DNA from: Vulcanimicrobiota bacterium
GTDB lineage: Bacteria > Vulcanimicrobiota > Xenobia > Xenobiales > JADMJV01
Assembly: GCA_050250895.1 (NCBI GenBank)
Contig: JBFWNU010000003.1
Location: 459,302 to 523,301, forward strand
Length of the DNA: 64,000 nt
Reading direction: 5' to 3'
Part shown: positions 4,199 through 28,434 of the stretch, one piece after another
Numbering within the stretch: the stretch's first letter is position 1
Layout: every line of letters starts with the position of its first letter
Notes under the pieces: model-generated
Told to the model about the DNA's origin: nothing
Seen by the model: the letters and a program-made list of their open reading frames with translations, nothing else
Databases searched by the model: none
Position numbers and translations under genes: made by a program

Positions 4199-4240
4199 TT
4201 GACACAGATCAATGGCTCGGGTAGGCCTAAGAGCGACGAT
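4199..4240 (+). promoter_or_regulatory. FNR/DNR-type box (TTGACACAGATCAA, 4199-4212) with putative -10 GACGAT
   Basis: Matches TTGAY-N4-RTCAA. The box centre is 41.5 nt before the ATG at 4247. Confidence 0.75.
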
Positions 4241-4246
4241 GCTCCT

Positions 4247-5407
4247 ATGGAACCGAAGGCCGGCCACCTTTTTTTTGCGCCCCATCGCGCTTTCATCGGT
4301 ACCTCTTTATGCCTGGCCGCTGGGGCCGGCACGCCTCTCGGGTTGTGGATGGCTCTGGTTTGGGCTGGGTGGGCCACGACCGACCGCTTCTCGTCGCTTT
4401 TGGCAGCTCACGGCCAACTTCAGGTTTATGGGTTTGTGTGCCTCTACACTATGGGAGTGGCCATGATGGTTCTGCCAGGCACACTCAAGGCGACCCTTCA
4501 ACCTCGATGGCTTGCGTTTGCCAGCCTGGTTCTGATGCTCACCGGCATTGCCGCGAATTCAGCCTCGCCCAACCTTCTGGGCGCCGCGCTCGAGTCCGGG
4601 TCGGTAATCGCCTATCTTTTCGTGCTCGGTCGAACTCGTCGGTCGGCCAAATCCACCGCCAGCACCGATACTTTGTCCCGCCAGCATGCCTTCTTCCTGG
4701 CCACGGGCTCGCTCTGGCTGTTGGCCTGCCCCTGGTTGGCTCTGCTGGATTCGACTCGAGCTCTTGAGACCGTGTTGTGGGGATTCGCGGGCCTTCACAT
4801 CGCCGGCATCGGCCTGAGGATCCACCCGTCTCTGCTAGGGATCAAAGGCATTCAAAAACAGTGGTTACTTCCATCCGCCGTCTGCTGGAATGTCGGCCTC
4901 CTGCTCTTCTGGCTGGGGCCTGAGGGCTTGTGGTCGTGGTTCTTGGCGCTGGGGGTCGGATGCTTTCTATGGGCCCTTCGCCCTTTTCGCCGACCGCGCA
5001 TCGGGCCTGGTGGTGGGGCCTGGGTGCGTTACTACATCCAAACTTCGTATCTCGGCCTCTTCCTGGCTGTCTGTTTCACTTGCGCCACCGCCAGTGGGTA
5101 TCCCACCCTGGCCGGAGCGGCACGCCATCTGCTGGCCACCGGGTTCGTGATCATGATGATGGTAGGGATGGGTCTGAGAATGATACCTGCCTACGAGACG
5201 CGACGCTTGCCTTGGCGCTCGGGGCCCTGGGCAATCTATTTTATCCTCGTCCTGGGGACGGCCGTCCGCGTGACCACCCAGGCCTTTTATTCCTTCACCT
5301 GGCTGGCCGTTGGGGCGGTCCTTCAGACGGTGGCCATCGTGCTCTTCGCCTGCCTGACCTTGGGAATGTATGCTTTTGGACAAACCGTGGTTTGCGAACA
5401 GGGTTGA
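4247..5407 (+). CDS. NnrS-like polytopic membrane protein
   Basis: About 12 hydrophobic segments, with HGQLQVYGF and ARHLLATGF His motifs as in NnrS-like heme/copper membrane proteins. Start moved to ATG 4247 because the track's TTG 4199 lies inside the box. Confidence 0.6.
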   Translation: MEPKAGHLFFAPHRAFIGTSLCLAAGAGTPLGLWMALVWAGWATTDRFSSLLAAHGQLQVYGFVCLYTMGVAMMVLPGTLKATLQPRWLAFASLVLMLTGIAANSASPNLLGAALESGSVIAYLFVLGRTRRSAKSTASTDTLSRQHAFFLATGSLWLLACPWLALLDSTRALETVLWGFAGLHIAGIGLRIHPSLLGIKGIQKQWLLPSAVCWNVGLLLFWLGPEGLWSWFLALGVGCFLWALRPFRRPRIGPGGGAWVRYYIQTSYLGLFLAVCFTCATASGYPTLAGAARHLLATGFVIMMMVGMGLRMIPAYETRRLPWRSGPWAIYFILVLGTAVRVTTQAFYSFTWLAVGAVLQTVAIVLFACLTLGMYAFGQTVVCEQG

Positions 5408-5445
5408 TTTATGTCAATGGGATCTCATCAGCAAGGCTCTAGAAT
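5404..5445 (+). promoter_or_regulatory. FNR/DNR-type box (TTGATTTATGTCAA, 5404-5417) with -10 TAGAAT (5440-5445)
   Basis: The 22-nt box-to-(-10) spacing is identical to that at the nirK promoter. Confidence 0.8.
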
Positions 5446-5496
5446 CTGCCAGGAACCCGGGCCGAGCCTACAAAAGCAGGCTGAGAGGAGGCCGTG

Positions 5497-8064
5497 ATGG
5501 TCAAAAGATGGCTGTGTCTTTGTCTTGTACTTTGGACGACTGGCGCCGGGGCGGCCCCACTCTTTCCCGACGTTTCCGACGCCCATTGGGCCAGCGACGC
5601 GGTTGCCGCCCTGGCCTCCAAAGGTCTGGTGGAGGGCTATCCCGATGGCACCTTCAAGGGCGACCGGGCGGCCTCGCGCTGGGAGGTGGCCATGGTGGTT
5701 GCTCGTCTGCTCGCCAAGATGGAGCAGCAACATCAGACCTTCGCCAGCAAAGCCGAACTCGATCAGATCCGCCAACTGGCCCTGGCCTTGCGCGAAGAAC
5801 TCGACGCTCTCGGGGTGCGGGTGACCAATCTAGAGGAGAAGGTGGGCCGGCTCGATCGGCGGGTGAGCGAACTCGAGCGCATCACCTTCTATGGTTCGGT
5901 GGATGCGCGCTATGTCGGTCAAACCTTCAGCAACGCGGGCATCGGCGACAACGACGACCTGCGCAATGGAGGCGGCAACGCCTCGAACGTGCCCTTTCTC
6001 AACTATCACACCGTGGTGGGAACGGGGCTGGCGGCCACCCGCCGACCTCAGCTGCAGGGTCTGATTCCGGTGGTGGACTTCAAGCAGGGCAAAGCCCTGA
6101 CGAACGGCAGCAGCTTTACCATGCGGACCACCCTCGGCCTCAACCTCAGGGTCAGCGACGACCTCGACGCCGGCGCTGAATTCTCGGCCTTTGCCAGCCA
6201 GGGCGACACTTTCGTGGATGCCTACTGGGGCGTGTCGGCTCCCTGGCTTTCCAACCTGTTCACCGCCAACGCAACCGCCGGGGCCGGCACCCAACCCCTC
6301 AACCACGTACCCTACACCCGGATGAACCTGGACAAGTTCTGGGTTTATCACAAACCTTCCAAGACCCGACTTACCCTGGGAGAGATCGTGAAGTCTCGGA
6401 TGGACGCTCTGGTCTATGCCGGACAACCGAACCTGGGCGTCTACGGCCCCCGGCGCTGGGCCGGATATGGCTTCGACCTGCAAGGGCAGATCGACCTGAC
6501 CGAGCCAGACCGCCTCGAGTGGGAACTGTTGGGGACGCGCTTTGGCAATGGCAACACCTTTCTCGGCACCAACTACGAGAACTATGTGCTGGCCGGCAAT
6601 CTGGCCTATCATTTTCACCAGGACGCCGGCAAGATTCAGCTCAATTACGCTCGAGTGGCGGAAGAAGCGGCCGCCGGCAGCGCTCTGCTGGTGGGTCTGG
6701 GCGGAGCGGGAATGAACGTCGCTTACGGCGCCTCGCCCGGTTGGAGCATCCGCCAGTGGGTCAACCCGCCCGGCTACTTCGCCGGTCAGCGAAGCCTGTT
6801 CGAGCAACTCAATAGCGGGCAACTGGCGGGAGGCGTGCTGGTCCCGAACACGGTGGATCGCCGCCCCATTGCCGGCTGGAACGGGGCCGCCGACAACGCC
6901 ATCGGCCTGGCCAGCGGAGGTGGCAACTTTGGACCTCAATCCCAGGACACCTACGGCCTCACCGGTCGCTACCGCTGGGACTTCGGCGAGGCAGCCGAGG
7001 CGCCCAGCCTCACCGCCTTCGGCGAATGGGGCCACAGCCAGTATCGGCCCAACCGCAACTCACCCTACTCGGCCAGCGGCGATGGTCTGCGGGTGGGAGT
7101 GTCAGCCAATCTGCTGGACGACGCCCTCGAACTGGGACTCGAATACCTGTCCATCGACCCCGACTACAACCCCGCCGCCTGGCCCGGCACAGCTCTCGGG
7201 GCTCGTTTTCCCCGCACCATGAACTTCACCGGGGTCTGGCATCCCCACGACTTCGCCACCTATCCCCACAACCGAGAGGGCGTTCGTCTGGACGGCACCT
7301 GGAGGTTCGACCAGAAACGCGGCTCTCTGTGGGCCAAAGCCTCTTTCCTCGACCAGAAGCAGACCTCGCTCTATGATGTGCGGGTCTTGCCGGGCGGGGC
7401 TGGCAACGGTGCGCCGACCTTCGCGGTGCTCGGCTTCTCGCCAGGCTTCGTCGATCCCATCTTCTATGGCTATGCCCATCCCAATCTCTATGGAGCGGGT
7501 AGCGGCAACTCTTTCACCACCAACCTGCAGCCCCTGGAGGACCCTCGTGGCAGCGAGAACAGCTATTCTCTGGGAGCCTCCTACCACTGGACGGATCCCG
7601 GAGTCCGCTTGAGCGGTTCCTACGGATACAACGATTTCGTTCGGCGCACCTCGCTGTCACCCGGACTGGGGGGTGACCAGAATCACGTCGACATCGACGT
7701 CGATGTTTTCAACCTGGAAGCTCAATGGGACATCGACAAGCAGTGGAAACTCACGGGCGGACTGGATTACACCCGGTCGGCCGGCCATCTCGACCCGGGA
7801 GGCCTGTACCACTCCTACGCCGTGGCCACCAGCAGCAGCACCTTCGACAACCTCGACTCCACCCAGACCTCGCCCTACGTCAGTGTGGACTGGGCTATCA
7901 ACGACAAGAGCGACTGGAACCTCAGCCTGCGGCGCTACGACACCACGGACGGCATCGATCGCCAGGTGCGGGCGGGGACGGCGCTCGACGCCATCGGCGT
8001 GACCACCCATCCCTTCGAATGGGAAGGTTGGCAGGTGAGTTCAGAGTTTAGATTGCGCTTCTGA
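5497..8064 (+). CDS. SLH-domain outer-membrane beta-barrel protein (OmpM/SlpA-like)
   Basis: Signal peptide, SLH (FPDVSDAHWASDAV...GLVEGYPDGTFKGDRAASRWEVA), a coiled coil, an aromatic/Gly-rich beta region and a terminal Phe (EFRLRF). RBS AGGAGG. Confidence 0.85.
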   Translation: MVKRWLCLCLVLWTTGAGAAPLFPDVSDAHWASDAVAALASKGLVEGYPDGTFKGDRAASRWEVAMVVARLLAKMEQQHQTFASKAELDQIRQLALALREELDALGVRVTNLEEKVGRLDRRVSELERITFYGSVDARYVGQTFSNAGIGDNDDLRNGGGNASNVPFLNYHTVVGTGLAATRRPQLQGLIPVVDFKQGKALTNGSSFTMRTTLGLNLRVSDDLDAGAEFSAFASQGDTFVDAYWGVSAPWLSNLFTANATAGAGTQPLNHVPYTRMNLDKFWVYHKPSKTRLTLGEIVKSRMDALVYAGQPNLGVYGPRRWAGYGFDLQGQIDLTEPDRLEWELLGTRFGNGNTFLGTNYENYVLAGNLAYHFHQDAGKIQLNYARVAEEAAAGSALLVGLGGAGMNVAYGASPGWSIRQWVNPPGYFAGQRSLFEQLNSGQLAGGVLVPNTVDRRPIAGWNGAADNAIGLASGGGNFGPQSQDTYGLTGRYRWDFGEAAEAPSLTAFGEWGHSQYRPNRNSPYSASGDGLRVGVSANLLDDALELGLEYLSIDPDYNPAAWPGTALGARFPRTMNFTGVWHPHDFATYPHNREGVRLDGTWRFDQKRGSLWAKASFLDQKQTSLYDVRVLPGGAGNGAPTFAVLGFSPGFVDPIFYGYAHPNLYGAGSGNSFTTNLQPLEDPRGSENSYSLGASYHWTDPGVRLSGSYGYNDFVRRTSLSPGLGGDQNHVDIDVDVFNLEAQWDIDKQWKLTGGLDYTRSAGHLDPGGLYHSYAVATSSSTFDNLDSTQTSPYVSVDWAINDKSDWNLSLRRYDTTDGIDRQVRAGTALDAIGVTTHPFEWEGWQVSSEFRLRF

Positions 8065-9608
8065 TGGCTTCTCGTTCTCCGTTGGCCGCCCAGCTCGAGC
8101 GGCTGATGCGACCGCTCGATTGGCTCTTCAATCGGGTCTACACGTCTCGATGGAATCCTCTCTACCAAAGTGGAGCGCTGGCCCTATTTCTGGTCCTGCT
8201 CACCCTGGTGAGTGGGATCTACCTAATCTTTTGTTACAGCATCTCGGCTCCCTATGAATCGGTTTCCTCCATTCATCAGGCCTACCCTGGTGTCTGGATC
8301 CGCTCCCTGCATCGCTATGCCTCGGATCTCGCCGTGGTGGCAATAGTGTTCCACATCCTCAAGATGCTGACCACGGATCGTACTTGGGGACCGCGAATGA
8401 GAGCCTGGATGTCGGGCTGGGTCGTTTTTGGCGCCATGCTCGTCTGTGGCTGGACCGGTTTGGCCCTGATTTGGGATGAACAGGCTCAGCTACTGGTCCT
8501 GGAAGTGGTCCGCCTGCTCGATTGCCTCCCCTTCTTCCCCGAGCCTCTGGCGCGGCTTCTGGTTGGACCCGAGATGCCTCGGGGCTTCTTTTTCAGCCTC
8601 CTCTTTCTTCATGTAGCCGCCCCACTGGGATTGGGCGGTCTCTATCTTCTTCACGTCTCGTCGGTGGCCAGGCCTACTCACCAGCCACCCAGGCCGATTA
8701 GACTCTACACGTTTGCCTTGCTGGCAGTACTGGCTGCGCTCGTACCCGCTCCGCTCGGGCCTGCGGCCGACCTCTCGAAGCTCCCTGGTCGAGTCCCGGT
8801 CGACTTCTTCTACTCCGGCTGGCTGATCGTCAGCCCCTGGTTGACAGGCTGGGCGATGTGGGCGGCTTTGCTGCTGACCGCTCTGTTGGCCTTGAGTGTC
8901 CCCTGGTGGTGGAGACCCACTGGGGAGCCTCCCCAGGCCAGCTGGGTGGATTGGGAGAGCTGCACGGGATGCACTACCTGTTATTTGGATTGTCCTTACG
9001 AGGCGATCTCGATGGTCGAACGGACGGGTCCAACGGCGGATGAGCGTCACTCGAAGTACGTCGCCCTGGTGAACGCGGATGCTTGCGTCAGCTGCGGCAT
9101 CTGTTCTGGCTCGTGCGCCCCGATGGGGGTCGGCCCGCCCGACCGGACGGGTAAAGCCCAATTGCTCCATGTGAAGGGCTGGTTCGACGAGCATCGGCCC
9201 ATTGGCAAACTGGTGGTGGTGGCCTGCACCAAGTCGCCAACCCCTAGCCAGGGGGTTCTCTTCCCGGTTAGCTGTGCTGGGGCTGTCCACACTTCTGTTT
9301 TGGAGTATCTTCTTAAAAGAGGAGCCCTCGGGGTCTATCTACTTAGCTGCCCCCAGCGCGATTGCTGGAACCGTGAAGGTCCTCGTTGGGCCCATGAACG
9401 GATCTACAATCAGCGCGAGGCCGAACTGCAGGCCAGGGTAGATCGGCGGCGCATCGCCACCGGCGCCTTTGCCTTTACCGAGGCGAGACCGGCCCGGGCG
9501 GCCATCGATGCGTTCGCCGCTAGCCTCGCTCCGTTCGAGCGACCGCTCGCGACCGAGGAAGTGGCCATGCCCACGCCAGAATGCGAGGAGAAGCAGATCG
9601 ATGGCTAG
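8064..9608 (+). CDS. Fusion of di-heme cytochrome b, 2x[4Fe-4S] ferredoxin and MvhD/FlpD-like [2Fe-2S] domains
   Basis: Two H-x13-H pairs (RSLH...VFH; FLH...LLH); CTGCTTCYLDCP and CVSCGICSGSC; VACT...SCAG...LSCPQRDCWNREG. TGATG overlap with the upstream gene. Confidence 0.85.
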   Translation: MASRSPLAAQLERLMRPLDWLFNRVYTSRWNPLYQSGALALFLVLLTLVSGIYLIFCYSISAPYESVSSIHQAYPGVWIRSLHRYASDLAVVAIVFHILKMLTTDRTWGPRMRAWMSGWVVFGAMLVCGWTGLALIWDEQAQLLVLEVVRLLDCLPFFPEPLARLLVGPEMPRGFFFSLLFLHVAAPLGLGGLYLLHVSSVARPTHQPPRPIRLYTFALLAVLAALVPAPLGPAADLSKLPGRVPVDFFYSGWLIVSPWLTGWAMWAALLLTALLALSVPWWWRPTGEPPQASWVDWESCTGCTTCYLDCPYEAISMVERTGPTADERHSKYVALVNADACVSCGICSGSCAPMGVGPPDRTGKAQLLHVKGWFDEHRPIGKLVVVACTKSPTPSQGVLFPVSCAGAVHTSVLEYLLKRGALGVYLLSCPQRDCWNREGPRWAHERIYNQREAELQARVDRRRIATGAFAFTEARPARAAIDAFAASLAPFERPLATEEVAMPTPECEEKQIDG

Positions 9609-10128
9609 GTTGATACTCCGTGGTTTGTTTGGTTTGGTCTGCCTTCTCGGGCTGGCCCAATTGTCTGCCTGCCCTGCGGGCAAGCAGACCGACAGGGGCA
9701 TCTTAAGGCTGAGCTGGCGACTCACGGGCGCCCGGATCGAGAGAATGCTCACGCCAGAGGAGTTAGAGAAGCTTCCCCCACACATGCGGCCCCGTGATGG
9801 CGTGGCCGAAACCACCGAGTTGCCCTATCGGCTCAGCATCGCCATCGATACTCGGCGTGACTCGTTTCGAGTCACGCCCGCAGGCTGGCGGGGCGACCGC
9901 CCGCTCTTCGTGCTACGCGACTACCCGTTGGCTCCCGGTCACCACCAGGTTGTGGTCGAATTCGGGCCAGAAGACACGGAAGTCGAGGCCACCCGCTACA
10001 GCTTCGCTCAGAGCATTGAATCTAGAGCCGGTCAGATCCTTACGGTCAGGCTCTCTCCCGAACAAGATCAGCTAATTCTCACAGCCGCTCCAGAGCCTGA
10101 ACGATCCAAGCGGTCGGCGGATCGGTGA
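9601..10128 (+). CDS. Hypothetical exported or membrane-anchored beta-rich protein
   Basis: ATG 9601 overlaps the previous stop. Hydrophobic N-terminus with possible lipobox LSAC. Confidence 0.65.
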   Translation: MARLILRGLFGLVCLLGLAQLSACPAGKQTDRGILRLSWRLTGARIERMLTPEELEKLPPHMRPRDGVAETTELPYRLSIAIDTRRDSFRVTPAGWRGDRPLFVLRDYPLAPGHHQVVVEFGPEDTEVEATRYSFAQSIESRAGQILTVRLSPEQDQLILTAAPEPERSKRSADR

Positions 10129-10963
10129 AGGAATAGGCCAGCCGCCCCCGAGAGTCCAGCACAAAGATCATGCCTGGATGATTCACGTCGCCGTTTTGGG
10201 GATTGCGGGAGATCGGTAGTTTGTAGGCCTCGATGACCCGAAGGACATCCTCTACGGGTCCTGAGAGAACGTGGTCTTTGGGTCCGAGCCTGAAGGTTTG
10301 CGCTAGTCCGGGCAAGGCACCCGGAGTGTCACGCCAGGGGTCTAAGGTGACCACGACCAGGGCCGGCCGAGACCGGGTGTCTGCCAGGGCGTGATCCAGC
10401 GTTGCCAGCAAACGTGGGCAGACGCTTTGACAGTGGGCAAAGGCGAAGGTCAAGATGACCTTTTGGCCGAGCAGCATCTGGTTGGTCACCGTCTGCCCGT
10501 GTTGGTCCACCAGAACGAACGGGGGGGCTGCCTGGGTTCCACGGGGATAGTCCCGGGGGAGTTCGCTGTCCTCGAGGTTGGCGGAGAAGATTGAGGCGGA
10601 GTCTCTAGTGACGGTCACGACCCGTTGGACACCCCAGAGCAAGAGCCAGGCGGGAAGGATGGTCAGCGCCACCAGGACGCCACGCCCGGGGGCACTGGCC
10701 TTGAGGCGACGGAAATCGGCAATCAGCTCCTGCGGCCACAAGAATACCAGGGCGGTCAGCATCAGCAGAGGGCTGCCGACCAGGGTCAACCAGCCGTAGC
10801 CTTCTGGCAAACCGTTGGGCAGGCTGCCAAAGCAGGTCGACCGCGCCGCCTGAATCCATTCCGGTGTCGTCTCGGGCAAGGGGGCCAGGGCGAACCACCA
10901 CCACCACAGCCCGACGACCAACCAGGCCATCAAGAGGTGGCCTGCTAGCGACAGTCGCCTCAA
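10079..10963 (-). CDS. SCO/SenC copper chaperone with an N-terminal membrane domain
   Basis: FAHCQSVCP (CxxxC), TLDPWRDTP and a conserved His (VNHPG). Directly follows oxidase subunit I. Confidence 0.9.
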   Translation of the reverse strand: MRRLSLAGHLLMAWLVVGLWWWWFALAPLPETTPEWIQAARSTCFGSLPNGLPEGYGWLTLVGSPLLMLTALVFLWPQELIADFRRLKASAPGRGVLVALTILPAWLLLWGVQRVVTVTRDSASIFSANLEDSELPRDYPRGTQAAPPFVLVDQHGQTVTNQMLLGQKVILTFAFAHCQSVCPRLLATLDHALADTRSRPALVVVTLDPWRDTPGALPGLAQTFRLGPKDHVLSGPVEDVLRVIEAYKLPISRNPQNGDVNHPGMIFVLDSRGRLAYSFTDPPTAWIVQALERL

Positions 10964-10964
10964 A

Positions 10965-12683
10965 TCAACCCACCTTCCATAACAACGAGAGCAGCTTCCA
11001 GTTGGTGAAGTAGTAAAGTACGAACGCGCCCAAGAATACGAACACCAGCACCATGGTCCCTGGACAGCCCTGATCGTGAACCGCCTGCAACTCGTCCTGG
11101 CTGTAATCGCAGATGCGTTTGGGTGGATTGGCCACCCCCTGGGGCACGCCGGTCAACGCCGGACCGAACTCTTCAGGGCGAATCTTCTTGCCGAAAAAGA
11201 CCGAGATCACGGCCACGACGATAAAGCAGAGGGCACCGGTGGCGGCCAATAAACCGCCGATGCCCAGGCCGGCCAGGAACAGGTCCACGATGGCCGGATA
11301 CTGTAGAGAGAAGTCGGCTTTGGTGAACGAGATATCGTAGTGCCGGCGGGGCACGCCAAAGATGCCGCTAAAGATCATGCTCATTCCCATCATGGAAATG
11401 CCACCGCCAAAGAGGTAGGGTTGGATTTTGGCCAGGGGCCAGAGGGCTACACGCTTGCGGAAGATCAGTGGCAGCAAGTAGTAGGTGACTCCCATGAAGG
11501 CCAGAGCCGTGCCACCGGCCACGGTCACATGGAAGTGGCCAGGAACCCTCAGTGTATTGTGGGCCGTGATGTTGATTTGCTCGGTCCCGAGGGTCACACC
11601 AGTGATGCCTCCTAAGAATCCGAAGATCACCAGGGATAGGAACATCGCCGAGAAGCCAGGATCTCCCCACGGGGCCTTGATGAGCCACTCGAATCTGCCT
11701 TTCACGTAGCCGCGCAAGCGCTGCCCGGCTTCGATACCTGCGGGCACCGTAAAGCCGTGGACCATGCTGGCCAGAACGGCCAGATACATGGCGTAACTGG
11801 TGTTCCACACCTTCCAGGCCGGGCCCATGCCGGGATCCACCAACAGATGGTGGGCGGATGCCATAGAGATGAAAAGGACGTAAAGAAAGAAGGCGCCGCG
11901 GCTGACTTTCTGGTTGAGAACCACTCCTCCGACCGAGAGAGCGGCCAGGAGATACCAAATGGACACATGAGCAGCTACGTTAATCTGTTGTGAAGAATGC
12001 CCCAGGCCCCACCAAACCATGCGATAGATTTGCGGGTCGACCTCCATCAATCCGAGAGACCAGAGGAAGGTCGGGATGTAGATCAAAGCACCATGAAGCA
12101 AAGTGATTACCGCGATCACAGCGGCCGTGAGGGCCCCATAGGTTACCAGGGGGATGGCACCATCTCCATAGGTCTTTTCGCGCTTTGCCACGACCAGGGC
12201 GGCAAAGAAGAGACTCACCACCACCAGAGCGCCCACAGCGAACAGGATGATGCCCAGGTAAAAGGCCGGATGGGCTTTTAAGGGCACATAGGAAGTAAAG
12301 AGTACATCTGCTTTGCCGGCAAAAATGACGCTGTCGGTCATGAGTGCGCCACCAAGCATCAGGGCATAGGACGCCCAGGCCAATCTGGGAGCCGGCACCC
12401 GGCAACCAAGCAATACCGGACCGGCGAAGTAGAGTACGGCCATTTCGAAGAATAGGATGAAAAAGATCAGCATGTTCAGGCCGTGGAGGGTCAGCACCCG
12501 ATAATACCATTCAGCCGACAGCAGGTGGACCGCTTGCCAACGCGTCAGCGCCAGTCCGATTGCGGCGAGCACTCCCACCAGGAAGAAGACCACGGCAGTC
12601 ACGGCGTTGACCTTGATCAGCCACTCGGCATCCCGATGAATTCGGGCCCCGGTGACGGGACAGATGCGAAAAAGCTCGGTCAT
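10965..12683 (-). CDS. Heme-copper oxidoreductase subunit I, B-family-derived eNOR-type nitric oxide reductase
   Basis: YYRVLTLHG, AHHLL and GHFH ligands are present. The active-site helix reads GHSSQQIN, with Gln where O2 reductases carry the cross-linked Tyr (HPxVY). Confidence 0.85.
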   Translation of the reverse strand: MTELFRICPVTGARIHRDAEWLIKVNAVTAVVFFLVGVLAAIGLALTRWQAVHLLSAEWYYRVLTLHGLNMLIFFILFFEMAVLYFAGPVLLGCRVPAPRLAWASYALMLGGALMTDSVIFAGKADVLFTSYVPLKAHPAFYLGIILFAVGALVVVSLFFAALVVAKREKTYGDGAIPLVTYGALTAAVIAVITLLHGALIYIPTFLWSLGLMEVDPQIYRMVWWGLGHSSQQINVAAHVSIWYLLAALSVGGVVLNQKVSRGAFFLYVLFISMASAHHLLVDPGMGPAWKVWNTSYAMYLAVLASMVHGFTVPAGIEAGQRLRGYVKGRFEWLIKAPWGDPGFSAMFLSLVIFGFLGGITGVTLGTEQINITAHNTLRVPGHFHVTVAGGTALAFMGVTYYLLPLIFRKRVALWPLAKIQPYLFGGGISMMGMSMIFSGIFGVPRRHYDISFTKADFSLQYPAIVDLFLAGLGIGGLLAATGALCFIVVAVISVFFGKKIRPEEFGPALTGVPQGVANPPKRICDYSQDELQAVHDQGCPGTMVLVFVFLGAFVLYYFTNWKLLSLLWKVG

Positions 12684-13219
12684 GGCGTGTCCTCCACGAT
12701 GATCTTACCGACCATCTGGTGATGGCCGATTCCGCAATATTCGTTGCATACGATAAAGAACTCACCAGCCTCGTTAGGGGTGATGCGCAGACCATAGTCG
12801 TAGCCAGGCACGACCTGGAAGTTCAGGTTGATGGGCATCAGACTGAAACCGTGGTTGACGTCAGCCGAGGAGAGATGCAGGGTGTAGGTCACCCCTTTCT
12901 CGAGCTTGAGGATAGGTGACCAGCGCCACATTTGACCCAAGAGATAGATGTCCGCGCCCGGCGGTGGGGCCACGATATGATAACCCTTTTCCTTGCCGAT
13001 AGAGTATTCTTTTTCGAATCGGCTGACGCGAGCCCGGAATTCCTTCTTGTCGACCTTACGCCGAATACCAGACGGGTTCTGCCCTCCCTTGAGATGCCAA
13101 AGCGGCATCATTGCAAAGAGGACGAGACACCATATAAAGGCAACCGTTACCCAGAGCTTCTCCTGGGGACCTACCGGCTGCCACCAATTACCCTCAACGG
13201 GAGCAATGGGCGAGTCCAT
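12680..13219 (-). CDS. CuA-containing subunit II
   Basis: One TM helix, then DVNHGF...CNEYCGIGHHQM. Confidence 0.93.
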   Translation of the reverse strand: MDSPIAPVEGNWWQPVGPQEKLWVTVAFIWCLVLFAMMPLWHLKGGQNPSGIRRKVDKKEFRARVSRFEKEYSIGKEKGYHIVAPPPGADIYLLGQMWRWSPILKLEKGVTYTLHLSSADVNHGFSLMPINLNFQVVPGYDYGLRITPNEAGEFFIVCNEYCGIGHHQMVGKIIVEDTP

Positions 13220-13231
13220 ATCAGTCTCTTT

Positions 13232-13381
13232 CTAGGGTAGTTCCGCCGGGGGCAGGCTCCACACCTCGATGGCCCCCCAAACGGTGTAGAACAAAAACAT
13301 GACAAAAAGGCCAGCAGCCAGTAAGAAGAATGGGTTATCCATCAAGCGTTGCGCCAACGGGGCTTTCGAATCATCGTTCAT
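13232..13381 (-). CDS. 49-aa single-TM small subunit (subunit IIa-like), absent from the ORF track
   Basis: Translated by hand: MNDDSKAPLAQRLMDNPFFLLAAGLFVMFLFYTVWGAIEVWSLPPAELP*. RBS GGGAGG. First gene of the oxidase operon. Confidence 0.8.
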   Translation of the reverse strand: MNDDSKAPLAQRLMDNPFFLLAAGLFVMFLFYTVWGAIEVWSLPPAELP

Positions 13382-13408: not shown

Positions 13409-13450
13409 ACTCTAGAAGGCTCGCACGATGTCAACATTGATCCATGTCAA
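13409..13450 (-). promoter_or_regulatory. FNR/DNR-type box (TTGATCCATGTCAA, 13437-13450) with -10 TAGAGT for the eNOR operon
   Basis: Same 22-nt spacing, on the minus strand. Confidence 0.8.
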
Positions 13451-13469: not shown

Positions 13470-13892
13470 TCACAGATCGAACTGCGCCAAAAGGCGCTCG
13501 AGGGCGGGTCTTAGGCGGCGAAGTTCGTTGCGATGCACCGAGGAGAGCCGGTCCAGGACCGCCAGGCCTCGGGGGGTAATCTCCAACCAGATCTGCCGAG
13601 CGTCCTCGTGGTTGGTCCGCCGAGTCACCAGGCCGTCTCTCTCCATGCGTGTGACCAGTTCGCTGGTGCTTTGCGGTTTACTACAGAGGCTCTTAGCCAG
13701 GCTGCCGATGCTGACCTGTTGACCCAGCGGCGCTCCCCGTATGGCCAACAACGCCTGATGCTGCATAGGGGGAAGCCCTTCACGCCGGGCCGCCTGGCGG
13801 CTAAAATCGGTGAACAACCTCAAAGCTAGCCTGAACTCGGCCAGCGCCTCATAATCCGCCTGACTGACTCGCGCACGACCGTCCCCATCCAT
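13470..13892 (-). CDS. MarR-family transcriptional regulator
   Basis: DYEALAEFRLALRLF...QHQALLAI...LVTRMERDGLVTR...DARQIWLEITPRG winged HTH. The upstream extension in the ORF track overlaps the radical SAM gene, so the start is placed at ATG 13892. Confidence 0.88.
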   Translation of the reverse strand: MDGDGRARVSQADYEALAEFRLALRLFTDFSRQAARREGLPPMQHQALLAIRGAPLGQQVSIGSLAKSLCSKPQSTSELVTRMERDGLVTRRTNHEDARQIWLEITPRGLAVLDRLSSVHRNELRRLRPALERLLAQFDL

Positions 13893-13899
13893 GGCCCTC

Positions 13900-14874
13900 T
13901 CAGCTTCGCTCCAACTGAGCGCAAGCCTGCCCCCCGAGCTGAGAATAGAAATCAGCCCGAGCCGATTGCCAGTCGCGACAATCGCGGCATACCACTGGCA
14001 GTTCGTCCCAGCGGGCCTCGCGGTGTTTCCGGCGAAAGTCCGCCAACGGCCCATTCCAGATCTCGGCCAGAGTCGAGGTGTTAGCGTCGCCAGCCACAAA
14101 CCTGGCGTCGAGATCCACGGCACAGGCCACCACCTGGCCTCGATCGGTAACCGACAAACTTTGCATGGCCCAGTAGCAGGGCCAACGCTCCTCCTGGCCC
14201 AGAACCAGATTCGAAGCCTCCACTTTGCCCGCCCAGCTGACTTTAGGCCGGATCTTGACCTGTGCTCCATGGCTGGTCCAAAAGTCGATAAAGAGCTGTG
14301 TCTCCTGGCTATTCTCTTCCATTTCAACGAACTGAACATAGACTTGAAGAGGTGAGGCCTTCTGATCGCGCAGGCGCAGAAGATGCTTCACATTCTTGAC
14401 CACTTTGGTGTAGTCTCCTCCAACTCGGATTTTCTCGTAGGTCTCTGGCAAGAAGGCGTCGATGCCGATATAGATGGCGTCGAGTTTTGAACCGATTAGC
14501 GCGTCGGCAGCAGCCTCGTCAAGAAGGTTGGCGTTCGAGTTGAGGACTACGTCGGTGAGCCCACGCTCCTTTGCGTAACGGATCCGGTGGAAGATCCCGT
14601 CGGGTTGGCGCCGGGTAATCAGGGCTTCGCCAAAAAACACCATCCAAACCCTGATGCCCGGGTCGGTGGCGGCGATCTCGTCAATGATCTTGACGAAAAG
14701 CTCCTCGGCCATGTAGCCTCGGGGCCGGGCCATTTGAGAATGGAAACACATCGAGCACTTGAGATTACAGAAACTCACGGTATCGATGAGCACCACTCGA
14801 GGAAATCCCCCCGCCGATTCATCCAGTCGGCCCTGTTTGCGTTGTTGAAGATATACTGCAGACTCTCGAGTCAT
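13900..14874 (-). CDS. Radical SAM protein with SPASM/twitch domain
   Basis: CNLKCSMC; C-terminal CYWA...ACAVD...CRDC. RBS AAGGAG before ATG 14874. Confidence 0.9.
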   Translation of the reverse strand: MTRESAVYLQQRKQGRLDESAGGFPRVVLIDTVSFCNLKCSMCFHSQMARPRGYMAEELFVKIIDEIAATDPGIRVWMVFFGEALITRRQPDGIFHRIRYAKERGLTDVVLNSNANLLDEAAADALIGSKLDAIYIGIDAFLPETYEKIRVGGDYTKVVKNVKHLLRLRDQKASPLQVYVQFVEMEENSQETQLFIDFWTSHGAQVKIRPKVSWAGKVEASNLVLGQEERWPCYWAMQSLSVTDRGQVVACAVDLDARFVAGDANTSTLAEIWNGPLADFRRKHREARWDELPVVCRDCRDWQSARADFYSQLGGQACAQLERS

Positions 14875-14902
14875 AGCGGTTGCTCCTTGGGTAGATCCTC
14901 CG

Positions 14903-14944
14903 ATTTTGAGCCGTGGTTCGAGCGGGCACATTGATGTGGATCAA
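14903..14944 (-). promoter_or_regulatory. Perfect FNR/DNR box TTGATGTGGATCAA (14931-14944) with putative -10 CAAAAT toward the radical SAM gene
   Basis: Consensus half-sites and 22-nt spacing. Confidence 0.75.
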
Positions 14945-14965: not shown

Positions 14966-15007
14966 TTGATCCACATCAAGGAATGGATCGGCCTGGCCAT
15001 CTAGAAT
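14966..15007 (+). promoter_or_regulatory. Perfect FNR/DNR box TTGATCCACATCAA (14966-14979) with -10 TAGAAT, nirK promoter
   Basis: Canonical class II (-41.5) geometry. Confidence 0.88.
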
Positions 15008-18868: not shown

Positions 18869-20095
18869 CTAGTTGCTCCTGGTCGTCTCGGGCATTTCAG
18901 TGCGCAAACGCCGAGCGAGTGCCTCGGGGAAAGGGAAGCTGCCGGGCCGATAGGCGCAGTAAGGGTCCTCGTCGTGGGGGTCGCCGCTAAAAGCGAAGGC
19001 ACGCGAACGAGAACCCGCACATAGTCGTTTAAACTCGCAGGCACCACAGCGGCCCTTCAGGCGGTCGGGATCGCGGAGTTCGTGAAAGAGGGGAGCGCTT
19101 CGATAGATGTCAGCCAGGGGTTGCCGGCGCACGTTGCCGGCCGACAGGGGTAGAAACCCGCTGGGAAAGACGTCTCCTCGATGAGAGATGAACACAAACC
19201 CGTTGGCCGCGTTGATGTGCATGGGAGTCCTCTGGAGTTCCACTCGCGAAGACAGCCCCCGGGTCTTGACGATTACTTCCAGTCGAGAGTGCAGGCGTCG
19301 ATAGAGAGGGTGCAGCCCCTCAGAAGCGTCCTTCCCGTGTTCCTCAAAGATGGCCCTCTGTACTAGTACCCTTTTGAAGTGATGACCCTCGGTCGTCTTG
19401 ACGCTCAGGTAGCGCCCGCAGTCCGCCAGGAAGTGCATCACGGCCTCGCATCACGGCCTCGCATTCATCGGGCCTGAGATCCTGTTCGGCTCGGCCGCGG
19501 CCGGTGGGCACCAGGAAGAAGACGCTCCAGGTCATGGCGCCCAATTCCTTGACAAGCGCGAAGAGGTCGAATAGATCATCAAGGTTGTGGCGCGTCACCG
19601 TGCTGTTGATCTGAACCCTCAGTCCCACTTGCCGAGCCGCTCTCCATCCCTCGAGGGTGAGTTGGAACGAGCCCGACACCCACGGAATGCGTCGTGGGAG
19701 TCGGCCGTCGAACCGTCGAGGCTGAGAGAAACGGCCTTTGCGCCAGCCTGGTGAATCAACTTTAGATTGGTTTGGTTCAGCAGGGGAGTGCCCGACGGAG
19801 AGACGGCCGCCGCTAGGCCGAGCTTTGAAGCATAGCCCACCAGGTCGGTGAGATCCGACCGCTTGAACGGATCCCCGCCCGTAAAAACGACGATCGGTGA
19901 AGGTTTGCCAAAGTCGAGAATTTGCTTCAGAAGACGATGCCCCTCCTGGTTGGTCAAGGCCAGAGGGTCGTGGTTCGGCCGGGCACTAGCTCGGCAATGC
20001 CCACAGACCAGGTCGCAGGCTTGGGTTACCTCCCAGATGATCATGAAGGGCCGCTCCTGGCGAGCTGCTCGAGGATGACGAATTAGCTTTCTCAC
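18869..20095 (-). pseudogene. NirJ/AhbC-D-like (TIGR04053-type) radical SAM/SPASM gene broken by two frameshifts
   Basis: Three consecutive fragments: IWEVTQACDLVCGHC..FTGGDP / GSFQLTL..WSVFFLVPTGRG / VKTTEGHHF..CGACEFKRLCAGSR..DPYC. About 1 nt is missing near 19680 and there is a 13-bp duplication at 19435-19460. Confidence 0.85.
19435..19460. repeat. 13-bp perfect tandem duplication (GCATCACGGCCTC)x2
   Basis: Read directly; it coincides with the frame change. Confidence 0.95.
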
Positions 20096-20101
20096 CCGAG
20101 C

Positions 20102-20143
20102 AGCATGACAGGGCCAGGACGATCCGCCATTGACCTGGGTCAA
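20102..20143 (-). promoter_or_regulatory. FNR/DNR-type box TTGACCTGGGTCAA (20130-20143) with putative -10 CATGCT
   Basis: Centre 41.5 nt before GTG 20095 (MRKLIRHP...). Confidence 0.75.
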
Positions 20144-22615: not shown

Positions 22616-23266
22616 ATGTTAGAGAAGCTCCTGGGACCTCGTGTCCCCAGCCGGGAGATGGCCCGGCACCGGGCCCGCTACCTGCTGCCGACGCTTCTCC
22701 TGTTGCTGGCCAGCGGGATGCTGCTGGGCTCTACCCGGCTGCCGTACTGGCGAATGGAATTGCAAGCCCCGCAGTATCCTGGCGGCCTGGCCGTGACCGT
22801 GTTCGTCGACCACACCGAAGGCGACGTCAAGGAGATCGACGGCCTCAACCACTACATCGGTATGCGTCCTCTCGACGAGGCGGCCCGTCTCGAGCGAGAG
22901 CTAGGGCTAGAGGCCATCATGGCCATGGCGCTGCTGGTCTTGCTGGCGACCTTACTGCACAACCGACTGGCCGTGCTGATGACCGTCCCCGGGCTGCTGT
23001 TTCCGGCCATCTTCCTGGCCGACCTTGGCTGGTGGCTGTGGTACTTCGGTACCCACCTCGACCCGCACGCTCCACTGAGCAGTTCTATCAAGCCGTTCGT
23101 GCCCCCGGTGCTGGGGGCAGGCAAAGTGGGACAGTTTCAGACGGTGGCCACTCCCGAGACGGGCCTGTGGCTGGCCATGCTCGCCTCGCTGGTGATGGTG
23201 ACCGGACTCTACTTTCACTGGCGGGCCTACCGGCCGCTCTGTCGACGACAGGAGAACCCAGCATGA
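22616..23266 (+). CDS. nosB: NosB-type membrane protein of clade II nos clusters
   Basis: PYWRMELQAPQYPGGL...EIDGLNHYIGM; 4 TM; follows nosZ. Confidence 0.85.
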   Translation: MLEKLLGPRVPSREMARHRARYLLPTLLLLLASGMLLGSTRLPYWRMELQAPQYPGGLAVTVFVDHTEGDVKEIDGLNHYIGMRPLDEAARLERELGLEAIMAMALLVLLATLLHNRLAVLMTVPGLLFPAIFLADLGWWLWYFGTHLDPHAPLSSSIKPFVPPVLGAGKVGQFQTVATPETGLWLAMLASLVMVTGLYFHWRAYRPLCRRQENPA

Positions 23267-25533
23267 GAACGACCTTGCTACTCATCTTACTAGCTCTTCC
23301 GGTCTGGCCCTCGCCGGTCGTGGTGGTCAACCCGTCCGACGATCTGGCGGCCGCCCTGGCCGGGGCTCCTCCGGGAGCCCGGGTCGAGGTTCGCGGAGGA
23401 ATTCACCCTGGCAACTTTCGCCTCGACCGTCCGGTGAGGCTGGTTGGTCTGGACCGGCCGGTGCTCGACGGGCAGGGGCATGGTACGGTGGTGCGGGTCA
23501 CGGCCTCCGACGTTACGGTGACAGGCTTCGTGGTGCGCGGCAGTGGCGACTCGCTGGATGCCGAGAATTCCGGCATCGCGGTCGAAGCGCCTCGGGCCAC
23601 CATTGAGGATAACCGACTCGAGGACACTCTTTTTGGAGTCTACTTACGCAAGGCTCCGGCCAGCCTGATTCGAGCCAATCGCATCACCAGCAAAGACCTG
23701 CCTTTGCCGCGCCGGGGGGATCCCATCCGCATCTGGTATAGCAACCGGGTACGGGTCGAAGACAACCTGGTCGAGCGCGGACGCGATGTGGTGTTGTGGT
23801 ATTCCGAGCATCTCGACGTGCATCGCAATTCGGTCAAGGACGGCCGCTACGGCCTGCACTTTATGTATTGCGACGACGCCCGGGTCGAGAGCAACATTCT
23901 GCGCAACAATTCGGTGGGAGCCTTCATGATGTATAGCCGCCGGGTCCAATTGCGCCGCAACCGGATCACTGGCAATCGCGGTCCCAGCGGCTACGGGGTA
24001 GGCCTCAAGGACATGGACGACGCGGTGTTAGAGGGCAATCTGCTGGCGGATAATCGCATCGGTGCTTCCCTCGATAACTCGCCTCGCGAAATCCGCAGTA
24101 CCGCCCTCTTTCGTCGCAACCTGTTTGCCTATAACGATGTCGGCGTCAAGCTGCTGCCCTCGGCTCGTCGCACCATGTATACCGAGAACAGCTTCCTCGA
24201 CAACCAGGAGCAAGTGCGTGTCGACGGTGGCGGCCGGCTTGAAGACAATTGCTGGGCTGTCGGCGGGCGCGGCAACTATTGGAGTGACTATCACGGCTTC
24301 GACCGCGACGGGGACGGTCTGGGTGATCTGCCCTATCGTTCCGAGAGGCTGTTCGAAGACCTGACTACAGCCCACCCCAGCTTGCGCCTGTTTCTGATGA
24401 GTCCGGCCAGCCAGGCCATCGATTTCGCGGCCAAAGCCTTTCCGGTGGTCAAGCCGGTCCCTAAACTGGCCGACGCCAGCCCGATGATGGAGCCGGTCTG
24501 GCCCGAGGTGCCGTCGGCGCAAGCCCAAGCGCCCGAGCGACTGGCTCTGGCCGGAGCCGGCCTGTTACTCAGCGGGCTGCTGCTCTCGGGCCTGGGGCGG
24601 CTCAACTTCAAGTTCTCGGTCGTCAGTGACGCGACGGCCCCGCGGGTCCGCCAGATGGTGGCGATGCGAGGGGTCACCATGCGGTTTGGCCCTACCCGCG
24701 TGCTGGACGAACTGACACTTTCCCTCGAGAGCGGGGCGTCGCTGGCCCTGTGGGGCATGAATGGCGCCGGCAAGACTACGGCCATCCGCTGTCTGCTCGG
24801 GCTCTACCGCTTCGGTGGCGAGATCGTGGTGGACGGCATCGAGGTCGCCCGGGACGGCCGCCTGGCTCGCGAACGTATCGGCTTCGTGCCTCAGGAGATC
24901 TCGTTCCACGATGATCTTTCGGTCACCGAGACGCTCGACTTCTACAGCTTGCTCAGACGAGCTCCTGAAGAACGCTCCGAAGCCTTGCTGCGGCGGGTGG
25001 GCCTGGGGGACCACCGCGACAAGTTGGTGCAGCACCTCTCGGGCGGTCTCAAACAGCGGTTGGCTCTGGCCGTGGCGCTCCTGTCGGACCCGCCTTTGCT
25101 GGTGCTCGACGAGCCTACGGCCAACCTGGACAGTGTGGCTCGCGAGGGGTTTCTCGAGTTGCTGCTCGAGTTCAAAGCGGCCGGCAAGACCCTGTTGTTC
25201 ACCTCGCATCGGCCCGAAGAGATCCAGACCCTGGCCGACCGAGTGGTGGTGCTCGAGGCGGGTCGAGTGCGAGCCGATGGTAGCCCCCGAGAAGTGGCCT
25301 ATCAGCTCGGCTGGGCCGTGGCTGTCAGGTTTCGCCTCGATGACCCAGAATCGGCTGCCCGTGTGCTCGAACAGGCCGGCTACAGGGTCTGCCCCGCGCG
25401 CCAGAGTCTGGTGGTCGAGGTGCCCTATCACGATAAGGCTCGCCTCTTGCAGCACCTGTATCAGGCCGGCCTGAGCTTTGGCGACTTCGAGCTCACTCCA
25501 CTGCTAGGAAGGAATCGCGACAATGTTCTTTGA
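23263..25533 (+). CDS. nosD: NosD (beta-helix) - TM helix - NosF (ABC ATPase) fusion
   Basis: RYGLHFMY and GNYWSDYHGFDRDGDGLGD (NosD), a hydrophobic helix, then GMNGAGKTT, LSGG and LVLDEPT in one frame. ATG 23263 overlaps the nosB stop. Confidence 0.9.
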   Translation: MRTTLLLILLALPVWPSPVVVVNPSDDLAAALAGAPPGARVEVRGGIHPGNFRLDRPVRLVGLDRPVLDGQGHGTVVRVTASDVTVTGFVVRGSGDSLDAENSGIAVEAPRATIEDNRLEDTLFGVYLRKAPASLIRANRITSKDLPLPRRGDPIRIWYSNRVRVEDNLVERGRDVVLWYSEHLDVHRNSVKDGRYGLHFMYCDDARVESNILRNNSVGAFMMYSRRVQLRRNRITGNRGPSGYGVGLKDMDDAVLEGNLLADNRIGASLDNSPREIRSTALFRRNLFAYNDVGVKLLPSARRTMYTENSFLDNQEQVRVDGGGRLEDNCWAVGGRGNYWSDYHGFDRDGDGLGDLPYRSERLFEDLTTAHPSLRLFLMSPASQAIDFAAKAFPVVKPVPKLADASPMMEPVWPEVPSAQAQAPERLALAGAGLLLSGLLLSGLGRLNFKFSVVSDATAPRVRQMVAMRGVTMRFGPTRVLDELTLSLESGASLALWGMNGAGKTTAIRCLLGLYRFGGEIVVDGIEVARDGRLARERIGFVPQEISFHDDLSVTETLDFYSLLRRAPEERSEALLRRVGLGDHRDKLVQHLSGGLKQRLALAVALLSDPPLLVLDEPTANLDSVAREGFLELLLEFKAAGKTLLFTSHRPEEIQTLADRVVVLEAGRVRADGSPREVAYQLGWAVAVRFRLDDPESAARVLEQAGYRVCPARQSLVVEVPYHDKARLLQHLYQAGLSFGDFELTPLLGRNRDNVL

Positions 25534-27718: not shown

Positions 27719-27759
27719 GCCTCAGAGGGGACGGTCGGCCATGGATGGAAGGACCCTCC

Positions 27760-28434
27760 ATGGCGAATTTCGACGAGCTCAGGGACTTCCCGTTCTTTAG
27801 CGGCCTCGGTCGCGACGAACTGACCCACGTGCTGCCGGCCGTGCACCGTCGGCAGGTCGCCGCGGGCACTTTCCTGTTCCAGGCCGGTGACCCCCCGGTG
27901 GGGTTCTATCTGGTGGTCTCGGGCCGGGTGAAGGTGTTTCGCGAGTCGGCCGACGGGCAAGAGCAAGCTCTGGGCTTCTTCGGTCCAGGCGAGTCGTTTG
28001 CCGAGGCTGCCCTTTTTCAAGAGGGCTATCCAGCCTCGGCCATTACCCTCGACGACTCGGAACTGTTCCTGGTGCAGCGTGATACTTTTATCCGCCAACT
28101 AGGCGACAATCCCAGCCTGGCGCTGCGGGTGATCGTGACGCTATCGACCAAGCAGCGTCGACTGGTGCGGCTGCTCGAGGATCTCACCCTGCGCGACGCC
28201 CGGGGCCGCTTCTGTCACTATCTGGCCCAACTCCTCGACGACCATCCCCAGGCACCCGTCACGGTAGCCCTGCCCGTGGCCCAGGTCACCCTGGCCAGGC
28301 TGCTGGGCGTCACCGAAGAGACGCTCTCGCGCACCATCCGCAGTCTGCGCAAGGACGGCATCCTGGGAGCGGCCGAGAAGGGCCAGTTCGTGGTCGAAAA
28401 CGTCGAACAGCTGAAGAAGGCCTACTCGATCTGA
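27760..28434 (+). CDS. Crp/Fnr-family regulator, DNR/NnrR-like (no FNR Cys cluster)
   Basis: cNMP-like domain (FYLVVSGRVK, GPGESFAE) and HTH recognition helix ETLSR (ExxSR). Confidence 0.92.
   Translation: MANFDELRDFPFFSGLGRDELTHVLPAVHRRQVAAGTFLFQAGDPPVGFYLVVSGRVKVFRESADGQEQALGFFGPGESFAEAALFQEGYPASAITLDDSELFLVQRDTFIRQLGDNPSLALRVIVTLSTKQRRLVRLLEDLTLRDARGRFCHYLAQLLDDHPQAPVTVALPVAQVTLARLLGVTEETLSRTIRSLRKDGILGAAEKGQFVVENVEQLKKAYSI

Follow-up and report, generated by a model that had tools for sequence, protein, structure and literature searches.

The DNA analysed here, hereafter the window, is a stretch of 64,000 nucleotides from a Vulcanimicrobiota bacterium (GCA_050250895.1, contig JBFWNU010000003.1, positions 459,302-523,301 of the forward strand), and positions refer to it unless another locus is named. 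Three plus-strand genes of the window converge on an operon for a nitric oxide (NO) reductase of the eNOR type. The first (5494-8064) encodes an 856-residue paralogue of the OmpM/SlpA-type SLH tether-porins (PF00395 SLH, E 2.2e-11). The second (8064-9608) encodes a 514-residue protein, hereafter the fusion, a di-haem cytochrome b with six membrane helices joined to two [4Fe-4S] clusters and an MvhD-like [2Fe-2S] domain. The third (9601-10128) encodes a protein of 175 residues, hereafter the partner, with an N-terminal membrane helix, a predicted periplasmic beta-sandwich and a His61-Met62 motif. The stop codon of the porin gene runs into the start codon of the fusion in TGATG (8062-8066, as read from the letters), and the ATG of the small gene at 9601, which has GAGGAG upstream, overlaps the last codons of the fusion by 8 nucleotides (9601-9608). 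On the minus strand follow a SCO1/SenC copper chaperone with an N-terminal membrane domain (10079-10963; PF02630, E 1.7e-22; CQSVC motif), which is the last gene of the eNOR operon, eNOR subunit I (eNOR I, 10965-12683, 572 residues; PF00115, E 3.3e-63), eNOR subunit II with a CuA motif (eNOR II, 12680-13219; PF00116) and, ahead of eNOR II, an open reading frame (ORF) for a 49-residue, single-helix membrane protein (13232-13381). The small gene and SCO1 face each other with their 3' ends, which share 50 nucleotides (10079-10128). The three coupled genes converging on the eNOR operon had been described in an earlier account made from the letters of the window and its ORFs (the sequence-only reading), and this description holds. 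A DNA contig of 1725 nucleotides from another public data set, with 71 differences, spans the junction between porin and fusion, so that an assembly artefact can be ruled out for this arrangement. Our subject is the pair formed by the fusion and the partner, and its relation to the neighbouring reductase.

We assign the reductase to the eNOR type because a glutamine replaces the cross-linked active-site tyrosine. eNOR I reads H229-S-S-Q-Q233, with the glutamine at the position of the cross-linked tyrosine, and the same H-x-x-Q-Q is found in all 75 of the fusion-linked subunit I homologues that cover the site. The ligand positions of eNOR II (H123, C158-NEY-C162-GIG-H166-HQ-M169) agree with H...C-x3-C-x3-H-x2-M, which we take to be the pattern of CuA ligands. 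The published criterion distinguishes eNOR with Q at the tyrosine site from oxygen reductases with Y and sNOR with N (PMC8756737, Table A4).

The fusion matches PF00033 at residues 30-199 (49 bits, cut-off 27.2), Fer4 at 295-352 and FlpD/MvhD, PF02662, at 394-488 (38.9 bits, cut-off 22.3), all above the Pfam cut-offs. Across 20 homologues with 45-56% identity, H83, H97, H183 and H197 are invariant, as are eight ferredoxin cysteines and the four cysteines of the MvhD domain (C388, C404, C429 and C434), which confirms the four haem-b histidines, the two [4Fe-4S] motifs and the MvhD-like [2Fe-2S] domain of the sequence-only reading. A further cysteine beyond the four cluster ligands, Cys507 (window 9580-9590), is nearly invariant and stands in the acidic C-terminal tail as E-C-E. 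The best match of the family profile is cytochrome b6 (E 3.8e-24). In the AlphaFold model (predicted local distance difference test, pLDDT, 74), six helices are covered by an alignment of about 280-350 columns with bc1 cytochrome b. The model also aligns with MvhD (5odc_D) at a TM score of 0.65 and a root-mean-square deviation of 3.6. At E 1e-3 or better the family comprises 2308 of the 8000 candidates that were scored, and its Atlas clusters are commonest in Pseudomonadota and Gemmatimonadota; the names that its members carry in the sources, 'hydrogenase iron-sulfur subunit' and 'ferredoxin', mislead the annotation of the fusion.

The comparison with the cytochrome b of the bc1 and b6f complexes reveals both kinship and departure. 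PF00033, the four haem histidines, the 13-residue spacing in helices B and D and the six-helix fold are common to both. However, a Pfam search finds no PF00032 domain in the fusion, the PEWY motif is unrecognisable, helices G and H appear to be replaced by a cytoplasmic arm with three clusters, and the fusion loci have no gene for a Rieske protein or cytochrome c1/f in their conserved neighbourhood. Arginine-rich loops are found at the N-terminus, between helices B and C and between D and E, and in the segment after helix F. Because of the positive-inside rule and the analogy with cytochrome b, we place the iron-sulfur arm, which follows the sixth membrane helix, on the cytoplasmic side; at this location it would have no direct electron hand-over to the periplasmic CuA. 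The VDFFY stretch had been taken for a changed PEWY. The letters are present at residues 246-250, and the ef-loop carries a conserved VP(L/V)D.FY across the family; however, the equivalence is unproven, as residues 193-297, compared with the PDB, have no detectable similarity to the C-terminal parts of cytochrome b or to subunit IV and return chance haemoglobin matches only, and the confidence of the model is lowest at 239-257. The likeness to MvhD consists of PF02662, the four invariant cysteines and the match in fold, and the adjoining dicluster region resembles the ferredoxin domain of HdrA. Unlike MvhD, the domain is here tethered to a membrane cytochrome, and no hydrogenase or HdrABC genes are found among the neighbours scanned. 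A comparable idea is represented in anammox bacteria by complexes of a Rieske protein and cytochrome b with NAD(P)-oxidoreductase subunits, in which a low-potential branch to cytoplasmic iron-sulfur or flavin carriers is driven by a nitrogen-oxide acceptor of very high potential; these complexes differ from the fusion in that the Rieske protein is kept and the subunits are separate.

The window copy of the partner matches no Pfam or NCBIfam family, and Pfam is likewise negative for the members of its family. In an alignment of 30 members the N-terminus forms a hydrophobic helix, and H61, M62, G95, R100 and G113 are invariant. Two cysteines flank the His-Met in 27 of the 30 rows, the exceptions being the rows of the window's lineage. 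The model of the partner (pLDDT 91) consists of a membrane helix and a ten-strand beta-sandwich, for which fold searches return generic beta-sandwiches only (best Foldseek E 1.4e-3; best VIA Z 7.0, in the commonplace range); as modelled, the sandwich is new. The product of 9601-10128 had been regarded as an exported protein and is better described, from the alignment and the model, as anchored by its N-terminal membrane helix. A profile search of 1.84 billion representatives gave 1326 clusters (E 1e-3 or better), whose proteins have, with few exceptions, 165-230 residues.

Three natural fusions, from three lineages, join the cytochrome b/iron-sulfur/MvhD protein to the partner through a membrane helix: P0105 with 722 residues, P0265 with 748 residues, and a gene in genome G198 (L106:5377-8433, minus strand; hhalign probability 98.7%). 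In the last locus no separate SCO1 gene lies between eNOR I and the natural fusion, and SCO1 is not part of the long G198 protein either. A word-index search for further long, fused relatives of the partner found none, but it missed a known fusion too and so carries no information. Because the two proteins are joined in these three cases, they are very probably subunits of one complex. The passage of the chain through the membrane helix would also put the sandwich opposite to the iron-sulfur arm, that is, on the periplasmic side.

The relation of the pair to eNOR was followed in 41 related genomes, from 10 of which we fetched the loci besides that of the window. A full-length homologue of the fusion, with 46-51% identity, is present in 11 of the 41 genomes (the window genome included), and the same 11 hold a full-length eNOR I with 70-73% identity. 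One further relative has an eNOR fragment only, at a contig end, and the fusion is missing from the 29 relatives without an eNOR I match. A wider scan, with one genome per species, gave 80 loci, of which L025 and L029 duplicate loci of the relatives; most are from Gemmatimonadota, and the others from Acidobacteriota, Myxococcota/deltaproteobacteria, Nitrospiraceae, Binatia and further groups. Within the 8 kb or less inspected around each locus, eNOR genes stand beside the fusion in 69 of the 80 (59 divergent, 6 co-directional and 4 convergent), and in each of the remaining 11 the contig breaks off within 3.5 kb to one side or both; in one of these (L060) eNOR I is found elsewhere in the genome on another small contig. 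A partner homologue follows the fusion in 73 of the 80 loci (tblastn with the window copy). Of 151 evenly sampled Gemmatimonadota genomes, 27 have the fusion (E 1e-60 or better) and 28 have eNOR I (E 1e-100 or better); in the 28th genome the fusion is present as two adjacent pieces beside eNOR, which brings the agreement to 28/28. Among 151 Acidobacteriota genomes eNOR I (58-71% identity) is present in four, with the fusion next to it in each. The check for which the sequence-only reading had asked, whether homologues of 8064-9608 are linked to eNOR, thus came out positive in every relative and in 69 of the 80 loci. Judging from these loci, the association of the pair with this eNOR clade is nearly obligate across several phyla.

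When the neighbours in 88 loci were clustered, only eNOR I, eNOR II, SCO1, the small protein and an Rrf2 regulator recurred in more than eight loci. Homologues of the 49-residue ORF are found by tblastn in 74 of 90 loci; in the window this ORF lies between the promoter box of the eNOR operon and eNOR II, and it is a candidate for a small eNOR subunit that annotation has missed. Neither the window ORFs scanned nor the clusters found in more than eight of the 88 loci include a gene for a Rieske or c-type cytochrome partner, and genes for HdrA or an Mvh hydrogenase are likewise missing from the scanned window ORFs and the recurrent neighbours. The sequence-only reading had stated that NosG/NosH, Rieske and HdrA genes are lacking from the window, and this stands for the ORFs scanned between 0.6 and 37.5 kb, in a scan that is not exhaustive. 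The proposed link of the pair to NosZ did not emerge from the 88-locus clustering; presence of the pair was not compared with presence of NosZ. In a fifth Acidobacteriota genome (L105:5169-8928, plus strand) we observed a distant haem-copper subunit I with 36% identity to eNOR I. There the arrangement is a different one: the next gene encodes, instead of the fusion, a 568-residue protein with a full canonical cytochrome b (PF00033 and PF00032) and an N-terminal extension of 240 residues.

An ordinary quinol oxidase module or general respiratory cytochrome b that came to lie beside eNOR by accident is a very improbable explanation for this distribution. In its favour, the genome has no PF00033 gene besides the fusion. 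However, the fusion is absent from the 29 relatives without an eNOR I match, its adjacency to eNOR is kept through three gene arrangements and several phyla, and for general use the genome has two loci for alternative complex III (ACIII), one of which adjoins a caa3-type oxidase. With these two loci present we also rejected the idea that the fusion is the sole quinol:cytochrome c oxidoreductase of the organism.

In 10 of the 10 relatives eNOR II, eNOR I, SCO1, the fusion and the small protein follow each other in this order on a single strand. Because all of them are co-directional, the convergent layout of the window is, judging from gene order, derived: the pair was turned round and joined to the porin gene. 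The ancestral operon would have ended with the pair, and a rearrangement in the window genome would have left it converging on the eNOR operon and translationally coupled to the SLH tether-porin paralogue. Residues 7-138 of the porin match OmpM1 of Veillonella parvula (8bys, E 3.6e-18) and SlpA of Deinococcus radiodurans (7zgx, E 2.4e-16), and the similarity extends up to residue 174. The NCBIfam model por_somb reaches 55.6 bits against a cut-off of 100 and matches residues 25-122 only. The porin shares with OmpM1 and SlpA the SLH domain, the coiled-coil stalk and a long C-terminal part; it differs in that only residues 7-174 match and that the window copy lies behind an FNR-type box in a denitrification island.

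According to the sequence-only reading, the three genes form an NO-inducible unit in which eNOR and NosZ receive electrons from the fusion, and nitrite or copper enters through the porin. We consider this improbable. It agrees with the translational coupling and the common type of promoter, with the Sec-dependent (clade II) NosZ of the window, and with two other loci: L017, which has a paralogue of the porin beside the eNOR cluster, and L060, in which an unrelated AlgE-type porin lies directly before the fusion. However, the porin family is present in 41 of the 41 relatives, whether they have eNOR or not, with 2-9 copies per genome (8 in the window genome), and nine of the ten relatives carry the pair with no porin in the fetched locus, so that linkage of the fusion to SLH-porins is confined to L017 among the ten. 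Beyond the eNOR set and Rrf2, no gene occurs in more than eight of the 88 loci, and it is the presence of eNOR that the pair tracks exactly. Because the family occurs in all 41 relatives regardless of eNOR, and near eNOR only in L017, the porin is, as far as these genomes indicate, a local recruit outside the conserved unit, and it would also stand outside the machine that the unit encodes. The AlgE-type porin of the Nitrospiraceae locus (L060:6041-7478, plus strand; PF13372) is represented by two ORFs directly upstream of and co-directional with the fusion, and it follows nirK, FGE and SCO1; this single case is too slight to support a conclusion.

The promoter ahead of the porin gene resembles those of other genes in the island. 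An FNR/Dnr-type box, TTGATTTATGTCAA, lies at 5404-5417 (plus strand) and is an exact match to TTGATNNNNRTCAA; it is followed by the -10-like hexamer TAGAAT at 5440-5445 (plus strand), in what would be class II geometry. The distance from the box centre to the first -10 base is 29.5 nucleotides at the porin, nirK and eNOR promoters alike (nirK: box 14966-14979, TAGAAT 15002-15007; eNOR, on the minus strand: box 13437-13450, TAGAGT 13414-13409). With what we presume to be the usual position of a -10 element, and the start site inferred from it, the box would lie near -41.5, the class II Crp/Fnr arrangement. Allowing at most one mismatch, TTGATNNNNRTCAA has 24 matches in the window versus 2.74 expected, and none of 100 shuffles reached 24. 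Palindromic sites are found at the NnrS-like gene (4199), at the porin gene (5404) and eNOR operon (13437), at nirK and a radical-SAM gene (14931 and 14966), and also in the nos region (20130 and 20490) and at the second NnrS gene (28435). The likely reader of these boxes is the Crp/Fnr-family gene at 27745-28434 (plus strand; PF00027 and PF13545), whose NCBIfam matches are all below the cut-offs and which is therefore classified at the family level only. The box and hexamer of the sequence-only reading, with the same geometry as at nirK and eNOR, are thus upheld, and the boxes are enriched above chance. Because of the constant geometry, the enrichment and the presence of a Crp/Fnr gene, co-regulation of the porin-led genes with nirK and eNOR is plausible from the promoter sequences; the porin promoter would have kept the displaced pair under the same control as the reductase.

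In other lineages a different regulator accompanies the pair. A gene for an Rrf2-family (NsrR-like, three-cysteine) regulator lies between eNOR II and the divergent fusion in L043 (7473-7889), L086 (4882-5295) and L067 (7425-7862), always on the minus strand, and about 25 more loci from Gemmatimonadota have it in the same place. Its presence hints at NO-responsive control in these loci in place of the Crp/Fnr boxes of the window type. A weak hint of expression comes from contigs of RNA libraries (two runs of one wastewater study), which are 95-99% alike to the window at 9330-9557, 9666-10295 and 9845-10117 and also cover much of SCO1, eNOR I and eNOR II; strand and level cannot be read from them, and contamination with DNA is possible. 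No such contig covers the porin gene or the junction at 8064, and the libraries are silent on read-through either way.

What the pair does for the reductase can be inferred from its composition and its company. The reading we favour, with about even confidence, is that the pair would be a two-subunit membrane redox module dedicated to the neighbouring eNOR, with the role of an electron wire. Subunit 1 would be a Rieske-less cytochrome b of the bc1/b6 type, whose two haems span the membrane and whose C-terminus bears three cytoplasmic clusters; subunit 2 would hold, by its one membrane helix, a beta-sandwich with the invariant His-Met loop on the periplasmic face. The haem pair would move electrons between the cytoplasmic iron-sulfur arm and a site on the periplasmic side, either a quinol pocket or the partner. 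The outcome would be a private electron route for eNOR, or the coupling of very exergonic NO reduction to the cell interior. The sequence-only reading had the fusion connect the quinone pool or a cytoplasmic donor to the CuA enzymes; a link to eNOR is supported, one to NosZ is not, and a cytoplasmic arm could not reach CuA directly.

Several points weigh against an electron wire. To donate directly to CuA, the module would need an unproven exit on the periplasmic side of the outer haem; apart from its His-Met, the partner shows no motif for a redox cofactor; and the Qo-like motif is unverified in the sequence search. Our sampling covers one eNOR clade, with 58-73% identity to the eNOR of the window. 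Where the operon is co-directional the pair follows SCO1, a place that suits an assembly factor equally well. The eNOR of Rhodothermus marinus, for which alone activity was shown, was isolated and performs NO reduction, and the passages on eNOR in the paper describing it mention no cytochrome b/iron-sulfur genes or partner (PMC11214002).

A less probable reading, although it comes close to the wire in likelihood, is that the pair acts in maturation, helping with SCO1 to build eNOR rather than to run it. By one possible route, a thiol, Cu(II) or Fe(III) would be reduced with electrons from quinol or a cytoplasmic donor, so that CuA, the metal of the active site or the modified haem a could be inserted. 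The co-directional order of structural genes, SCO1 and pair agrees with this, as does the activity of the isolated R. marinus enzyme with no such partner mentioned, and the invariant His-Met of the partner with its flanking cysteines comprises typical soft-metal ligands. CcoG, an assembly factor of the cbb3 oxidase, is a membrane-bound cupric reductase with two [4Fe-4S] clusters and an Ig-like domain, and we count this precedent for maturation; among the NCBIfam matches listed (25 of 40) there is no CcoG model. However, a haem pair across the membrane together with three clusters would be elaborate for a chaperone, the cysteine pair is lost in the window's lineage, and the partner matches neither PCuAC nor another Pfam family. 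The Ferrigenium homologues discussed below, moreover, are abundant enough to be detected in a proteome (bioRxiv 10.64898/2026.01.22.701106). Neither does the pair appear to replace PCuAC, which is found in 15 of the 28 Gemmatimonadota genomes with the pair versus 46 of the 123 without it. We had considered the partner as a substitute for PCuAC, as the genome has no PF04314 gene, and dropped this idea in the absence of an anticorrelation in Gemmatimonadota; PF04314 has no match at E up to 1 in the 30 members of the partner family.

A bolder reading, which we think improbable, is a Rieske-less, quinone-based energy converter that makes low-potential reductant from NO respiration by bifurcation. 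Quinol would be oxidised near the outer haem, and one electron would go to the CuA of eNOR, pulled by the very high potential of NO/N2O. The second, low-potential electron would pass through the two haems and the three-cluster arm to ferredoxin or NAD(P)+, and the partner subunit would hold module and eNOR together. The Ferrigenium preprint speculates likewise for NADH (bioRxiv 10.64898/2026.01.22.701106).

Our search of the literature for eNOR together with cytochrome b/iron-sulfur or MvhD proteins returned one relevant text, the preprint on Ferrigenium straubiae, whose section 6.5.2 reports an eNOR operon with two 'rather unusual' cytochrome b/iron-sulfur genes and puts forward a supercomplex (bioRxiv 10.64898/2026.01.22.701106). 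For the sNOR cluster of ammonia oxidisers, norSY-senC-orf1, the literature identifies the last gene by the label orf1 only. Assuming orthology to the window genes, the two systems share a cytochrome b fused to iron-sulfur domains and encoded with eNOR II, eNOR I and sco1, and the Ferrigenium proteins are present in the proteome. They differ in that the composition is called unusual there and is the rule here for this eNOR clade in several phyla, that one Ferrigenium protein has added FAD and NADH domains which are absent here, and that the section describes no membrane-anchored partner protein. The earlier claim that this composition is without a characterised counterpart stands, with the qualification that cytochrome b/iron-sulfur genes were noted in this 2026 preprint as part of an eNOR operon. 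Our analysis adds the split operon, the Crp/Fnr promoter led by the porin, the linkage counts and the natural fusions.

The island that surrounds the pair continues with a nirK fused to cytochrome c (TIGR02376, above cut-off) and the Sec-dependent (clade II) NosZ with NosD, NosF and NosY, followed by a cytochrome c, a hemerythrin, the Crp/Fnr regulator and a second NnrS. NosD and the ABC ATPase (NosF-like) form a single open frame of 833 residues (23032-25533, plus strand). Just upstream of the porin lie a cytochrome P450 gene (3037-4185, plus strand) and the NnrS-like gene (4199-5407, plus strand), the latter with an FNR-type box at 4199-4212; homologues of the P450 with 45-50% identity are also found near eNOR in L016, L018 and L021. 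Radical SAM/SPASM genes and a MarR-domain ORF lie within the island (13470-14931 and 18869-20143, both on the minus strand), one of them behind the FNR-type box at 14931, and a homologue of the first radical SAM/SPASM gene (65% identity) occurs near eNOR in L016.

Reductases of the eNOR type are widespread in bacteria of soil, sludge and sediment and are a source of the greenhouse gas N2O. The pair, encoded with eNOR throughout the sampled clade, is an obvious candidate for a missing piece of its wiring or its assembly. If the bifurcation reading were true, NO respiration would make a strong reductant directly. Knowledge of the role of the pair would sharpen the prediction of N2O from genomes, and the pair could reveal a Rieske-less use of a bc-type cytochrome b.

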